A stretch of DNA of 64,000 nucleotides from Thermoanaerobaculia bacterium (GCA_963746875.1 CAVVDA010000002.1:378610-442609); one strand, 5' to 3'. Shown: positions 10,873-58,719, counted from the stretch's first letter. Notes: a model not told the origin generated them from the letters alone. A program made the numbers and translations.

Positions 10873-11883
10873 CTCAGACGATCCGCGTCGCGGCGCGCGT
10901 CAGCCGGTCCATGATCGTCCGGCCGAGCCCGCGGCGGGGGACCGCGAGGACGAGCAGCTCGCTCCCGCGCCGGCGCGTGCGCAGCGCGGCGAACAAGCCG
11001 CGCGCGATCTCTTCGGGAGAGGAACCGAGAGAGAGAATTCTTTGCTTCGGAAAGAGGGAAGAGAGACGGCTCGGGCAAAGGACGAGCGCATTGCGGGTGA
11101 CTGGCGAAGTAGGCCAGCAGAGGACTCTTTTCTTAGAAAGAGAATGAGAGGACGCGACGGCGCGTAGTGCTTGTACTTCGTGCCGGGGCTGACGGCGGCG
11201 GAGCGCGGGGCGGCGGCGCGCGCCCCGCGGCGCGCGCCGCCGCCCCCCCGGAGCTCGGGAATCACTGCCTTCGCAGCAGCCTCCTCGGTCACGGCCCCTT
11301 GCCGGAGGATGGCGGGCCGGCGGGTCGAGCGCGACGACCGTCGACTCGACGCCGTGCTTCGTCGGTCCGCCGTCGAGGACGAAGACGTCCGGGAAGTCCT
11401 CGGCGACGTGCGCGCGCCGTCGTCGGGCTCGGGCGGCCCGAGAGATTCGCGCTCGGCGCGGCGATCGGGACGCCCGCGAGGCGAACGAGGTCGCGGGCGA
11501 CGCCTTCCGGCATCCGGACGGCGACGGTGTCCAGGCCGGCGGTGACGAGAGAAGGAATTGAAGATTTCTTAGAAAGGACGAGGGTGAGCGGCCCGGGCCA
11601 GAAGCGGGCGATGAGCTCGCGTCGCGAGCGGCCGGCAGTCGGCCGAACGACCTTTCTAAGCATCTTCACGATCGCTCACATGAACGATCATCGGGTTGTC
11701 TTGCGGCCGCCCCTTCGCCGCGAAGATCTTCGCGACCGCTTTCGCGTCGAGCGCGTTCGCGCCGAGGCCGTAGACCGTCTCCGTCGGGAAGGCGACGAGC
11801 TCGCCGCGTCGGAGGCGCGCCGCGGCGGCGCGCAGGGAGCGGGCGTTCAGCGGATGGACGTTGGTTGTTCGGCGCGCGGCCAT
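10873..11883 (-). CDS. sua5: L-threonylcarbamoyladenylate synthase (Sua5/YrdC with Sua5 C-terminal domain); frame-shifted; carries 4 copies of the dispersed repeat
   Basis: [14 protein letters not shown]; [10 protein letters not shown]; [10 protein letters not shown]; [13 protein letters not shown]; KHYAPSRPL; C-terminal [13 protein letters not shown] in a third frame. Confidence 0.8.
11026..11066. repeat. dispersed low-GC CT/GA-tract repeat, copy in sua5
   Basis: gagagagaattctttgcttcggaaagagggaagagag. Confidence 0.45.
11118..11150. repeat. dispersed repeat copy in sua5 (inverted partner of 11026)
   Basis: agaggactcttttcttagaaagagaatgagagg. Confidence 0.45.
11545..11585. repeat. dispersed repeat copy in sua5
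   Basis: gacgagagaaggaattgaagatttcttagaaaggacgaggg; partner cctttctaagcatcttc at 11648-11670. Confidence 0.45.
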
Positions 11884-11900
11884 CCGCGCGATCTTAGGAC

Positions 11901-13216
11901 CTACCGCATCGCCTCCATCGGCGAGAGGCGCGAGGCGCGGATCGCGGGGTAGAGGCCGAAGACGAGCGCGAGGCCGAGCGCGACGACCCACGCGATCGAC
12001 GAGGCCCATCGGGTTCACGACGAGGCCCCACGGGAACATCGGCGACAGGGCGCGGCAGAGCGCCGCGCCGCCGACCGTGCCCGACGAACGCGCCGAGCGC
12101 CGCGAGGACGCAGGCCTCGAGGAGGAACTGCACGAGGATCTCGCCGTCCGAGGCGCCGAGCGACTTGCGGAGGCCGATCTCGTACCGGCGGTCCGAGAAC
12201 GAGATGAGCATGACCGACAGGACGCCGACGCCGCCCACGAGGAGGACGGTCGCCGCGAGGCTGGAGAGGACGACGCGCCAGCCGCGCATCTCTTCCAGGA
12301 AGCCCGCGTAGCACTGCGCGCGCCTCGGACTCGAGGTCCTTGATCTCGACGTCCTCGATTCCGTGGTGCGCCTGCTTCGCCCGGCCCGAGGACGAGCGCC
12401 GAGACGTCCGTCGAGGTCGCTCTTCTTCGCGGAGCTTCACGGCCACGTTCGTGAGCTTGTGGTTCGCGTCCATCCGGTCCATGTACGTCTCGAGAGGGAT
12501 CATGAGTGCCGTTCGAGTCGAGCCACAGCTCCTCGTTGAAGATCTGGAGCGGTGCCTGCAGGCCGACGATCCGGAACGGGCACGCCGTCCACGAGGACGT
12601 CGCGCCCGACGGGGTCCGCGCCGCCGAAGAGCTTCGACGCCGAGCGTCGAGCCGACGACGGCGACGGTGCTGCGGCGCTTGCCGGTCGTCGTCGGTGAGG
12701 CCGCGCCCCGAGGCGATCGGGCGGTTCATGAGGAGCGCGTAGTCGGGCGTCAGGCCCGTGACCCAGATGCGCTCCGTGCCGCCCGGCGATCCTCACGCTC
12801 GTCGCGCTTCGTGGCGCGCGGCAGGAACGCGACGACCGCGGGGTGGGGCGCCGTGACGCGCGCGAGGTCCTCGTAGCGCAGGCCCGGGCTCATCGCGAAG
12901 CGCTTCTGCTCCTCCGTCGTCTCGGCCGCCTTCGGCTGGATCACGACGGTGCCGTCCCAGCTCATGCCCGCGAAGCCGGTCGCGACCTTGTCGAGGACGC
13001 CGTCGAGGACGGACGTCATGACGACGAGCGCGAAGACGCCGAGCATGAGGAGCGTCAGCGTGAGGATCGAGCGCAGCTTGTGCGCCCACAGCTCGACGAA
13101 TCCCGCCGGCGATGACCTCCCAGAAGAGACCGAGCCGGGCGCGCCAGGGAGAGACGCCGGCCCTTCGGCGCGGCGAGCCGGAACGGCGCGGCGCGTCGAG
13201 TGACGACGCTACTCAT
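11901..13216 (-). CDS. ABC transporter permease, FtsX/MacB-like (second permease of the efflux operon); frame-shifted
   Basis: TM helix [17 protein letters not shown]; C-terminal [24 protein letters not shown] and ...[16 protein letters not shown]. Confidence 0.7.
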
Positions 13217-15170
13217 AGCGCAGCGCCTCCATCGGAGAGAGGCGGCTCGCCTTCCACGCGGGGTAGAGCGCGAAGAGGAAGCCGAAGCCGGCCGCGAGGC
13301 GCGAAGGCCCAGAGGAAGCTCGCGGGCTGCATGTAGAGCGGGATCTCGAGGAACGACGTGATGACCTTCGAGAAGGCGACGCCGGCCGCGAAGCCCGCGA
13401 GGGCGCCGAGGCCCGTCAGGAGGAGCGCCTCGGTCATGAACTCCTTGAAGACCTCGCGGCCCGAGGCGCCGATCGCCATCTTGACGCCCACCTCGCGCAC
13501 GCGCTCCTTGAGCGTCGCCATCTGGATGTTCACGTTGACCATCCCGCCGCCGATGAGCGACAGGATGCCCGAGAGCATGAAGATCATGTTGTAGACGTCG
13601 CCCTGGCTCCGGCGCTTGCGGATGCGCGCGGCGATGTCGTCGATGCGGAAGTCCTCCTGCTGGCGGTGGTTCGCCTTGCAGGAGCGCCGTCGAGGCCCTC
13701 GCGTGAACGTCTCGCATGACGTTGAGGTCGCGGATCCGGAAGACGACGCGGTCGACGCGCTGCCAGCGGTCGCCCTGCATGCGCGTCGGCGACGAGCGTG
13801 GCCGGGACGGCGACGATCCGGTTCCGCCAGGCGAACTGGTTGCCCTGGTTGTCGCGCCAGCGGAAGATCTTCTCGGCGAAGGTCGCCGACGACGACGACG
13901 GGGATGTCGCCGAGCGCGGATCGTCTGGCCGACGGCGTCGCCCGTCGGGAAGAACGTGGACGTCGGCCTCGGCGCCGAGGAGCGCGACCGGCCTGTCCGT
14001 TCTCGAAGTCGTCCGCGGAGAAGCCGCGGCCCTTGTCGACCGTGTAGCCGTTCAGGGCGAGGTAGTCGCCGCCGATCCCGGTGATCTGGCGGTCCTGGTC
14101 GGCGTAGGGCGAGCGGACGCGCGCCCGCGCGAACTTCTGCTGCGCTGACGCCGGCGACGGCCTTCGCGTCGAGCGCGCTCGCCCTCCGCGGCGTCCTCGT
14201 TGCGGAGGCCGAGGTTCGCCGTCTGGAGCGCCGTCGGCTGGCCGTCGCGGATCGCCTCGCGACGGCTGGACGTTCAGGCGGTCCATCCCGCCGAGCTTCA
14301 CCCAGCGCTCGTCCGAGCGGCGCCGCTGGCTGTCGGAGATCGAGAAGCCCGCCGAGGACCGACGCGACGCCGAGGATGACGCCGAGCGTCTGGAGCGTCG
14401 ACCGGCCGAGGTTCTCGCGGATCTCGACCCAGGCGCCCGAAGAGGCGCTCGCGGAAGGCGCCGCGTGAACATCAGGCCGCCCGCTTCTCCGGACGTCGGA
14501 GACGATCAGGCCGTCGCGCAGCTCGACCCGCCGCTCGGCGAGGGACGCGATGTGCGGGTCGTGCGTGACGAGCATGACGGAGTTCCCCTGCCGGTGCAGC
14601 TCCTGGAAGAGGGCGAGGACCTCCTCGCCCGTCTTCGAGTCGAGCGCGCCCGTCGGCTCGTCGGCGAGGAGGAGCGCGGGCGTGTTCGCGAGGGCGCGCG
14701 CGATCGCGACGCGCTGCCGCTGGCCGCCCGAGAGCTGCGCCGGGCAGCACGTTCGCCTTCTCGGGGATCCCGACCCGCTCGAGCAGCTCGAGCGCGCGGC
14801 GCCGGCGCTCCTTGCGCGCCGAGGCCCGCGTAGAGGAGCGGCAGCTCGACGTTCCGGAGCGATCGACGCCTTCGGCAGGAGGTTGTAGCTCTGGAAGACG
14901 AAGCCGATCTTCTCGTTGCGGATGCGCGCGAGCGCGGCGCCGGACAGGCCCTCCACGTTCGCGCCGTCGAGCGCGTACGAGCCCGCCGTCGGCGAGTCGA
15001 GGCAGCCGATGATCGCCATGAGCGTCGACTTGCCGGAGCCCGACGGGCCGACGAGGGCCACGAACTCGCCGCGCCGCGACGGTGAGGTCGATGCCGCGGA
15101 GCGCGTGCACGGCCATGCCGTTCGCGCCGAAGACCTTCGTCAGGCCGCGTGTCTCGATGATCGGGCGCAT
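13211..15170 (-). CDS. macB: MacB-type ABC transporter (ATPase fused to FtsX permease); frame-shifted
   Basis: MRPIIETRGLTKVFG; GPSGSGKSTL Walker A; LSGGQRQRVAIARAL; LLADEPTGALD; permease RVREVGVKMAIGASGREVFKEF. Confidence 0.8.
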
Positions 15171-15173
15171 CGT

Positions 15174-58220: not shown

Positions 58221-58318
58221 GACTTCGGGGAATTATCCTCCGAAGGTGAATTCCCCGGGAGGAGAAGACTGGAAGAAGCGGCTGAAGGCGCTCGGCATCG
58301 TGCGGAAGAGGCGGACAG

Positions 58319-58359
58319 CCCCTCTTTCATTCGAAGAAAATCTTCCTCGTTCTCTTCGG
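58319..58359. repeat. dispersed repeat copy in the divergent intergenic region Zn-ribbon<->yraN
   Basis: cccctctttcattcgaagaaaatcttcctcgttctcttcgg. Confidence 0.55.
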
Positions 58360-58362
58360 ACT

Positions 58363-58719
58363 TTGCGAAAGGTAGAGAGCGGCCGGATCGGCGAAGACAT
58401 CGCCTGCGCCCTACTAGCAGAAAATTCTCTTCTCGTCCTCGCCCGAAACGTCCGCTACCCGGACGGGGAAATCGACATCGTGGCCCTGGAAGGCACGACG
58501 ACGGTCTTCGTCGAGGTCAAGCGCCGCCGGGACGGGGCGCTGGGGACGCCGGGCGAGGCCGTCACGCGGACGAAGCGCGCGCGCGTCGTCAGGGCCGCCC
58601 GCCGCTGGCTCGCGGCGCATCCTTCGCGGGCGGGCTCGGTGCGCTTCGACGTCGTCGCCGTTCAGGACGATCCCCCTTCGGTCGAGTGGCTGCGCGGGGC
58701 GTTCGACGCGTCCCGGTGA
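58363..58719 (+). CDS. yraN: YraN (UPF0102) family endonuclease; TTG start (alternative GTG 58300; the ATG-58219 ORF is probably over-extended)
   Basis: GRIGEDIACALL...ARNVRYPDGEIDIVALEG...FVEVKRRR. Confidence 0.7.
   Translation: MRKVESGRIGEDIACALLAENSLLVLARNVRYPDGEIDIVALEGTTTVFVEVKRRRDGALGTPGEAVTRTKRARVVRAARRWLAAHPSRAGSVRFDVVAVQDDPPSVEWLRGAFDASR

Follow-up and report, generated by a model that had tools for sequence, protein, structure and literature searches.

What keeps a short, AT-rich sequence at many sites of a genome that is otherwise rich in GC, both between genes and in frame inside them? This question is raised by a stretch of 64,000 nucleotides from a Thermoanaerobaculia bacterium (GCA_963746875.1, CAVVDA010000002.1:378610-442609), which in its entirety we call the window, and for which a first-pass annotation made from the sequence alone had described a dispersed low-GC repeat family similar to the Rickettsia palindromic elements (RPEs) that insert in frame into genes. 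The GC content of the window is about 70%, with a block of about 62% at 42-48 kb. We confirmed that the repeat family is real, that it occurs at the coordinates given below and that it is far above chance. The best reading of the sequences, however, is that the repeat would not be a transposing insert of the RPE type. We tentatively favor, with somewhat less than even confidence, an interpretation in which it would be a lineage-specific cis-acting signal, comparable to repetitive extragenic palindromes (REPs), the bacterial interspersed mosaic elements (BIMEs) and the REP doublets forming hairpins (REPINs), read by a putative trans-acting factor and kept by selection or biased conversion.

A repeat family confined to one clade

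Alignment in one direction gives CCCTCTTCACC-TTCTAAGAAA(A)TCTTC and, behind it, a CT-rich tail whose length varies. The unit is strand-asymmetric; one arm, as we call it, comprises the head CCCTCTTCACC, the nearly invariant core TTCTAAGAAA(A)TCTTC and the tail. A consensus of about 22 nucleotides (nt) is shared across unrelated loci and reading frames, and the conservation profile has its maximum at C.TTC.AAGAAA, with weaker flanks. A palindrome of the type GAAGAA-atc-TTCTTC, as suggested earlier, may be a binding site. Only a 9-bp palindrome, TTCTAAGAA, is present, however, and the invariant part of the arm, TTCNAAGAAA, is asymmetric, and a frequent variant, TTCGAAGAAA, disrupts the TTCTnAGAA palindrome with no compensating change. 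Head and core together (TCACCTTCTAAG) may show a likeness to the 3' end of 16S ribosomal RNA (rRNA), or anti-Shine-Dalgarno (anti-SD) sequence, which we mention as a lead only; there is no rRNA in any fetched locus.

Within the window, GAAGATTTCTTAGAA with up to three mismatches gave 8 matches against 0.22 expected, and TTCTNAGAA gave 10 against 0.28. Scanning for 30-nt windows at no more than 43% GC yielded 31 islands, and all the strong copies cited in the first-pass annotation fall in one of them; the islands that hold these copies are 30-73 bp long and 38-47% GC. A hidden Markov model (HMM) built from the copies and searched with nhmmer found 19 matches in the window, which, together with the low GC of the strong copies, bears out the dispersed low-GC family described earlier. 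The same model found 9 matches in three Thermoanaerobaculia/Acidobacteria metagenome-assembled genomes that had been retrieved by TypA/BipA match to the window (L001-L003; 94% identity in this protein, synteny over 20-40 kb and about 80-88% nucleotide identity), and one weak match among the remaining 77 BipA loci; in 74 of these, BipA is about 60% identical to that of the window. TypA/BipA identity is 77-83% in L004-L006 and about 60% in all other Acidobacteriota matches.

With a refined model, at 10 bits or more, we obtained 40 matches in 208 kb of the repeat-bearing clade and 1 match in 1.37 Mb of other Acidobacteriota loci taken as controls, an enrichment of about 260-fold, and the 10-mer TTCTAAGAAA, counted as exact matches, has 23 occurrences in the former and 0 in the latter. 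The density in the clade is about one copy per 5 kb, and the copies of the window, which lie within one replichore, are split between the strands without bias (9 on the plus and 7 on the minus strand). A metagenome scan with a 19-nt pattern returned at least 120 loci; among the matches listed, 107 loci at 62% GC or more (654 kb) held 201 repeat matches of at least 10 bits. By extrapolation, and not by count, a genome of 3.9 Mb would hold roughly 400-750 copies.

Using the HdrD-like protein of the window (53641-55764) as query, we obtained the syntenic loci L081-L087. The family is present in L081 (93% identity in this protein), in L082 (86%) and in L083, L084 and L087 (77% each), L085 (73%) has a few weak matches, one of them inside the HdrD-like gene, and L086 (70%) lacks the family, as does L005. 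The copy in the HdrD-like gene is already there in L085, whose etfB and etfA still overlap. Since presence differs by locus and by relative, the copies arose at different times and not in a single burst. The family is confined to one clade of high-GC soil and sediment Acidobacteria.

Several known kinds of sequence were considered and rejected. All 102 matches in a viral collection are single per locus and lie in loci of at most 55% GC, as expected from chance and not from a phage origin. A sigma-70 promoter or an intrinsic terminator does not account for the arms, as the search of 49.5-59 kb gave 0 promoter-like sites and 4 terminator-like ones that are all outside the arms. No Rfam covariance model matched at gathering score, other than that of a tRNA-Gly in the window. 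This tRNA-Gly(GCC) (58788-58862, minus strand) is followed by a strong GC-rich hairpin with a T tract (58751-58777, minus strand), and ordinary intrinsic terminators therefore coexist with the repeat family.

Pairing, gene polarity and transposition

Neighboring copies less than 400 nt apart, counted over the clade and the metagenome loci, stand head-to-head (GA..CT) in 55 cases, tail-to-tail (CT..GA) in 4 and in direct orientation in 8, and all 4 tail-to-tail neighbors are more than 350 nt apart. The arms of a pair are spaced about 65 to 200 nt apart, center to center, with a cluster at 66-87 nt in which 76 nt alone accounts for seven cases; a partner at such a spacing was found for about half of the strong arms. 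Because a pair is an inverted repeat, the transcript of either strand would carry a GA-rich arm and then a CU-rich arm able to pair with it, and the duplex DNA would present two inverted copies of one site. Structure prediction, proposed as a check in the first-pass annotation, indeed folds the pairs as long hairpins, with z = -4.2 for the etfB-etfA pair and z = -4.7 for that of the mutL linker.

The position of the arms relative to genes was judged by the coding potential of their flanks. Among 157 arms, same-frame coding on both sides is clear in 13, one flank is coding in 89 and neither is in 50. When one flank is coding, the tail is directed toward the gene in 80 of 89 arms. Arms located 3' of a gene end are GA-sense in 39 cases and CT-sense in 8, and those located 5' of a gene start are CT-sense in 41 cases and GA-sense in 1. 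The GA tail usually starts at the stop codon, which is found 21-47 nt from the core, and many CT arms end 30-55 nt upstream of the start codon, with or without a Shine-Dalgarno (SD) sequence.

The etf locus of the window fits this polarity. Its left GA arm (50600..50655, minus strand), the top match of the window at 21.1 bits and with orthologous arms in L081, L082, L083 and L087, begins at the etfB stop codon TAG; then come the spacer and the right CT arm (50705..50760, plus strand), which ends at the SD sequence GGAG and the ATG of etfA. In the predicted hairpin, the base of the stem sets the etfB stop beside the etfA SD and ATG. The rule also applies at the proB/proA junction, between the Pfam domains AA_kinase upstream and Aldedh downstream, where a single copy (17341..17379, minus strand) is GA-sense for both genes and its head GAAGGGAAT abuts the ATG of proA. 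In the divergent region at 35.7 kb, CT-sense arms are directed toward both genes: one (35679..35718, minus strand) is at the 5' end of a minus-strand beta-lactamase-family gene, its partner (TTCGAAGAATCTTC; 35842..35883, plus strand) is 154 nt away, center to center, and a third copy, in direct orientation (35951..35992, plus strand), covers the start and signal-peptide codons of a downstream peptidase-like gene, as recognized by HMM and Pfam.

The divergent region upstream of typA/bipA has a single copy (29389..29430, plus strand). The first-pass annotation took this copy and the one at 58319 for near-identical 40-mers; what they share is an identical 13-mer, with a mean column identity of 75% in an alignment of about 55 columns. 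The typA/bipA copy adjoins a conserved -10-like box, TGgTAtCCT. This box (CTGGTAACCT / CTGGTATCCT), about 55-60 nt upstream of the typA/bipA start, is kept in all relatives (window 29425-29440; L001 9925-9945; L002 3900-3915), and is probably an extended -10 promoter element independent of the repeat. The same copy is also at the right edge of a 1.5-kb segment (27891-29424) with two unannotated minus-strand ORFs (open reading frames). This segment and another of 4.1 kb (31933-36054), which carries the beta-lactamase-family gene, are absent from L001 and L003, and absent or largely replaced in L002; repeat copies are found at the right borders of both (29389-29430 and 35679-35992).

Some pairs enclose coding sequence. 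In L001 (17395-17545) and L003 (17600-17770), the minus strand of the 107-110 nt between the arms codes for a membrane peptide that is small and conserved (M..W.LLGVALFAAAFVSVL.DFRRSSPS), and that takes its SD from the head of one arm and its last codons, plus the stop in L003, from the core of the other. As a general account of the pairs, a small ORF conserved between arms was rejected, since ATG..TAA ORFs vary in frame and length among the window, L082 and L083, and the real one is found in L001 and L003 only.

Whether whole units transpose can be judged from their spacers. Homology among spacers of different loci was not convincing (mean z = 0.44), and the 26 unit pairs with similar spacers all have homologous flanks, namely, they are orthologues, with 0 of 26 at non-homologous sites. 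At orthologous sites, such as the etf and YraN loci, the arms are kept and the spacer has diverged. Arm identity is 0.506 within pairs and 0.527 between pairs (permutation p = 0.98, 56 units), and because arms are no more alike within than between pairs, the pairs are not recent inverted duplications, nor has there been compensatory evolution; each arm tracks the family consensus independently of its partner. The same comparison, together with a spacer palindromy of z about 0, led us to reject an origin by fold-back duplication, and inverton behavior was rejected given that spacer orientation agrees with that of the flanks in 26 of 26 orthologous comparisons. The structure of the spacers is not above that of shuffled sequence. 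No clear target-site duplication was seen, with a possible TA...TA flank at the spacer 3' of etfA, the outer ends being low-complexity and undefined. No associated transposase was seen at the arms among the fetched loci, and no gene for a REP-associated tyrosine transposase (RAYT) was among the Pfam calls listed for them, these being loci and not complete genomes.

Targeting of the arms by IS110 was likewise rejected, as the IS110-family copies of the window sit in attC-like repeats instead. These two insertion sequence (IS) copies (about 43038-44537 and 45046-46546) are 96-98% identical and occupy the same position of the attC-like repeats. They are part of a block of 62% GC (42300-49700) with attC-like imperfect palindromes that have GTCTAAC...GTTAGAC ends (e.g. 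47040-47108 and 47640-47665), a 51-nt repeat of this type at 44487, 46496 and 47058, and small minus-strand ORFs between the palindromes. The block also includes an IntI-like tyrosine recombinase (Phage_int_SAM_4 and Phage_integrase; 48741-49694, minus strand), and looks like a chromosomal integron. The recombinase is found beside etfB with IS110 neighbors in L081, L082 and L085, and without IS110 in L086. A 12-bit match to the repeat core (GTTTCTAAGAAATCTCAC) inside both transposase genes (44070-44088 and 46079-46097) could be due to chance, or could be a real IS-borne copy.

Copies within genes and changes of length

The conserved genes mutL (21800-24000), etfA (50759-50900) and sua5 (10900-11900), and the fused proB/proA ORF (16392-18830), are each split across several (two to five) frames in the window, and MutL of L001 is an intact single ORF of 616 amino acids (aa). 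The splits are probably due to many single-base indel errors in the window, of the sort left by long-read assembly, and the genes would not be pseudogenes. Since its genes are broken by frameshifts, statements on reading frames are better judged in the relatives, and several of the peptides quoted in the first-pass annotation came from broken frames. Other parts of that description stand, namely, that copies are found between genes as well as within them in frame, that they often form inverted pairs and are often near start codons, and that they use codons rare in this genome: arm codons end in T or A, and third-position GC is about 0.9.

In sua5, a minus-strand gene, two arms lie in the YrdC domain and flank the invariant FWPGPLT motif. 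One (11545..11584, minus strand) is CT-sense in the mRNA and shows no insertion with respect to Pfam, structures or orthologues; its partner (11644..11684, plus strand) is GA-sense and encodes KMLRKVV, and the two cores are 80 nt apart. The frame-corrected domain matches positions 3-178 of 178 of Pfam PF01300 over 173 residues, the comparison with a solved Sua5 (6f89) has single-residue gaps only across the segment spanning both arms, this segment has the same length in twenty orthologues, and the DNA alignment with outgroups is gap-free within either arm. Where outgroups have the codons CTC CCG AAG CGG CGC GGC GTC CCG GAC GCC (LPKRRGVPDA), the clade has CTT TCT AAG AAA TCT TCA ATT CCT TCT CTC. 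In L311, the two Sua5 arms show non-compensating changes. A weak single copy (CTCTTTCTAAGAAAAGAG; 11128..11146, minus strand; 11.0 bits with nhmmer) encodes LILFLRK in the C-terminal part of Sua5, and fits the conserved RPLILFLRK of the orthologue alignment.

A core copy inside etfA (50835..50874, plus strand; codons about 27-33, LSKKIN) is a substitution with unchanged length, which turned the outgroup LGRELAGKSGG into LGHSLSKKSGG in the clade, with intermediates in L082 and L083. The HdrD-like Fe-S oxidoreductase has its copy in frame in the part of the protein that lies in the membrane (LSKQFFSSLSFSSLQ; 54273..54335, plus strand), where EPVTAALSTTLSGASAGTLETVYF has changed to EPLTYSLSKQFFSSLSFSSLQSIYF, with one residue added; the length of the segment is otherwise the same in the homologues compared, down to 68% identity. 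A weak direct copy where the UPF0102 domain of YraN begins, as delimited by Pfam (58416..58445, plus strand), arose by substitution of LLIAHGVTILARN into LLLEENLLSILARN or LLAENSLLVLARN, the latter being encoded in the window, and the length is as in outgroup orthologues. The outgroup equivalents of these EtfA, HdrD-like and YraN-domain peptides are encoded by unrelated GC-rich DNA at essentially the same length, an outcome that the first-pass annotation itself had named as counting against its proposal.

In the N-terminal coding region of proA, a weak arm (17440..17470, minus strand), which encodes DLLRKVA and corresponds to the copy earlier reported at 17447-17472, weak at about 10 bits, has a weak partner (17547..17566, plus strand) that encodes TTFKEIPL, 92 nt away center to center; the comparison, with solved ProA/P5CS structures only, has gaps of 1-2 aa and no large insertion. 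The interdomain linker of mutL has a left GA-rich arm (22890..22943, minus strand), whose orthologue is in frame in the intact MutL of L001, and a right CT-rich arm (23092..23150, plus strand) with a long (CTT)n/(CT)n tail; this linker measures 92 aa in L001, which has the pair, and 85 aa in L005, which does not. The arms are read in different frames, giving DFLERG in MutL and LRKV in Sua5 and ProA. Another reported weak copy (23797-23836) was discarded: its peptide, a conserved rhomboid-type stretch rich in F, is found as well in L005, a locus without the family. Since the substitutions within arms use rare codons and alter amino acids, a force at the DNA or RNA level acts on them. Judged by these alignments, the coding copies of the window arose by point substitution and not by insertion.

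Real changes of length are found nonetheless at other sites. Between etfB and etfA there are 0 nt in L085, 28 nt in L086, 53-56 nt with one GA arm in L087 and L081, and 150-170 nt with a pair in the window, L082 and L083. In the linker of the YraN/UPF0102 protein, the window has one CT arm (58319..58362, plus strand) and misses the GA partner and spacer that are present in L081, L083 and L087. With the whole in-frame linker pair, YraN has 196 aa in L081 and 195 aa in L087, against 153-155 aa elsewhere (+41 aa), and L082 keeps only a remnant. A one-arm spacer of about 200 nt located 3' of etfA is oriented one way in L081 and L087 and the opposite way in L083, where it is 85% identical in reverse; neither the window nor L082 has it. 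This spacer, which separates etfA from a 600-aa gene convergent with it, is an imperfect palindrome with 71% identity to its own reverse complement (L087 7899-8105; L081 7903-8111; L083 7910-8107), and is bounded by GTAG...CTAC at both stop codons.

Competing explanations and significance

Because one consensus is found at hundreds of unrelated loci without covariation between partners, a trans-acting factor would read the sequence and not a mere hairpin, and the head-to-head geometry, with tails abutting stop and start codons, points to a gene-boundary module. In the cis-acting signal that we favor, new copies would arise and persist via selection or biased conversion toward the consensus, with occasional small indels. 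The tails of a pair extend outward, onto a stop codon on one side and the start region of the neighboring gene on the other, or else into stretches of protein under little constraint. The role would most likely be that of a gene-boundary module, as proposed for REP/BIME and Correia elements, which may be a protein-binding site, or an mRNA hairpin near stop or start that affects processing, stability or translational coupling. Several points weigh against this interpretation. No partner could be detected for about half of the strong arms; the protein or RNA that would read them is putative; the gene calls at metagenome loci were home-made and are unreliable near repeats, through which ORFs were over-called; and the length polymorphisms suggest that some copies are inserted or deleted DNA, with some mobility possible. 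Moreover, 7 of 10 residues changed in a conserved Sua5 segment are hard to justify for a generic architectural site, so that a drive-type explanation stays alive.

We consider rather doubtful, yet worth stating, a bolder proposal in which the arms would be the recognition word of a new clade-specific system, be it a DNA/RNA-binding factor or a recombination or uptake drive, that writes a two-fold symmetric mark between genes genome-wide. If true, this mark would recode segments of Sua5, EtfA and ProA by convergent point substitution, and it would be a new class of genome-wide cis signal beside Chi, the FtsK orienting polar sequences (KOPS), and the uptake signal and DNA uptake sequences (USS and DUS), although paired and gene-polar, and not a mobile element.

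[quoted passage not shown] Inverted pairs of preferred length, long hairpins and the occurrence in clusters of two and three, like BIMEs, agree with such an element, as do the polymorphisms of presence and length among close relatives (the etf spacer and the 41 aa of the YraN linker). The spacer 3' of etfA, with its opposite orientations in L087 and L083, is a further point in favor, as Correia elements have been reported to invert (PMC10969869). However, none of the 26 unit pairs with similar interiors lies at non-homologous loci, arms are no more alike within than between pairs, conservation peaks in the core and not at the outer termini, and neither a clear target-site duplication nor an associated transposase was seen, IS110 being in attC-like repeats; the copies in Sua5, EtfA, the HdrD-like protein, the YraN domain and ProA, furthermore, involve no length change beyond 1-2 residues. 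It is improbable, in turn, that the repeat is a genomic word of the USS/DUS class, spreading through a DNA-binding component of transformation or recombination that prefers fragments with the motif, such that motif-creating mutations spread despite their protein cost. Coding copies that arose by point substitution, with amino-acid changes and no indels, are what this predicts, and a nearly invariant 10-mer core with weaker flanks, the density, the lack of strand bias and the restriction to one clade, given that the low-GC viral matches are due to chance, are also in its favor. Inverted pairs at gene ends and a bias to gene termini have been reported for uptake sequences as well (PMC2346458). 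Uptake bias does not predict the very strong exclusion from clearly coding DNA (13 of 157 arms with clear same-frame coding on both sides), the strict head-to-head pairing at 65-200 bp or the tail-to-gene polarity, the copies are clustered and not evenly spaced, and the long purine/pyrimidine tails would be left unexplained.

A purely RNA-level element appears quite improbable to us. In this case, the GA arm after a stop would pair with the CU arm before the next start to form an RNase III-type site, or a hairpin that is opened by a terminating ribosome and couples the translation of adjacent genes, and the identity between loci would be a by-product. The tails that abut stop and start codons, the etf stem that brings the etfB stop beside the etfA SD and ATG, the GA-then-CU order in the transcripts of either strand and the cleavage of Correia TIR hairpins by RNase III (PMC10969869) are consistent with this. 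Against it are the lack of compensatory variation within pairs, including the non-compensating Sua5 arms of L311, the use of one 10-mer at all loci, even in unpaired copies, the presence of pairs in divergent promoter regions and within conserved coding domains, and spacers no more structured than shuffled sequence. Finally, we find it hardly credible that there is nothing specific in these sequences, that is, that they are ordinary linker codons of low complexity, or patches of AT-rich DNA due to chance, promoters for example, in a genome of high GC. Although the tails are of low complexity and variable length, and the discarded copy at 23797-23836 did turn out to be ordinary coding for a conserved peptide, this reading is already refuted by the enrichment over control Acidobacteriota loci, the exact 10-mer count (23 versus 0) and the arrangement of the copies; it also does not fit a consensus of about 22 nt across unrelated loci and frames, nor is there a match to the sigma-70 consensus.

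Comparison with known systems places the family between several of them. REPs are often found near stop codons, and are bound by gyrase and integration host factor (IHF). In REPINs, two inverted REP copies enclose a less conserved spacer of preferred length (PMC3116915, PMC3337134). The arms described here are similar in being short repeats, probably hundreds per genome, at gene boundaries and often directly behind stop codons, that form clusters and inverted doublets with hairpins, conserved at orthologous sites and vertically inherited. They differ in being AT-rich and purine/pyrimidine-asymmetric, with a microsatellite-like tail, whereas REPs are imperfect GC-rich palindromes; in lacking a GTAG/CGTC tag and having only the 9-bp TTCTAAGAA, broken in the TTCGAAGAAA variant; in being found in frame in Sua5, EtfA, the HdrD-like protein, MutL, YraN and ProA, whereas REPs are strictly extragenic; and in that spacers of different loci are unrelated and copies in conserved domains arose by substitution. 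Correia elements, or NEMIS, of Neisseria are 100-200 bp long with TIRs of about 26 bp, lie near genes with which they are co-transcribed, have hairpin TIRs cleaved by RNase III and an IHF site, and are reported to invert (PMC10969869). Terminal inverted repeats are present here as head-to-head arms (55 versus 4 tail-to-tail), but the conserved Correia interior with its IHF site, promoters and TA duplication was not found. Near-identical full-length copies at non-homologous sites, as in MITEs, were found in 0 of 26 cases.

With respect to RPEs, palindromic units of about 150 bp that are intergenic and also in frame in housekeeping proteins at tolerant sites (PMC10969869), the parallel drawn in the first-pass annotation survives only for some copies of the relatives. 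In-frame pairs occur at the YraN linker (L081 and L087), the MutL linker and an HdrD-like loop of L087, and the YraN linker of the relatives and the growth of the etf spacer do look like insertion; the coding copies of the window, substituted and of unchanged length, do not. RPEs encode a conserved peptide along the whole element and lengthen the protein, whereas here only the arms are conserved and the frames differ. Accordingly, a peptide absent from lacking orthologues was seen only in the YraN linker of relatives (+41 aa), with no change beyond 1-2 residues in the window, and sequence shared between loci covers the arms and not the element of about 150 bp, whose interior is unrelated between loci, unlike in RPEs. 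The host, moreover, is a free-living high-GC acidobacterium, and the coding copies of its window add no length. Uptake sequences occur at high density, have a clade-specific core of about 10 nt with weaker flanks, arise by point mutation at tolerant gene positions, and are mostly within genes and fairly evenly spaced. The present family resembles them as a clade-specific oligomer that is over-represented and that has formed inside genes (EtfA and Sua5) through point mutation, and differs in that uptake sequences are mostly intragenic and fairly evenly spaced, without gene polarity or purine/pyrimidine tails. The inverted pairs that uptake sequences form at gene ends (PMC2346458) are adjacent, and not 65-200 bp apart. 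A drive of this kind would explain the origin by substitution, but it would leave pairing, polarity and the exclusion from coding DNA unaccounted for.

Short repeats of bacteria are usually ascribed to transposition, as for REPINs, MITEs and RPEs, or to uptake bias, as for USS and DUS, and this family mixes both: it has the pairing, hairpins and gene-boundary location of REPINs and Correia elements together with an origin by point substitution within conserved protein domains, like that of a selected or driven word, and no conserved interior. The motif is a diagnostic marker of its clade, and it calls for caution in annotation, where it makes low-complexity peptides of rare codons, what look like linkers, and stops in frame. 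Should there be a factor that reads it, the repeat would represent a new form of gene-boundary marking in a widespread, uncultured soil and sediment lineage, and a tractable case in which selection at the DNA or RNA level overrides protein and codon-usage constraint.

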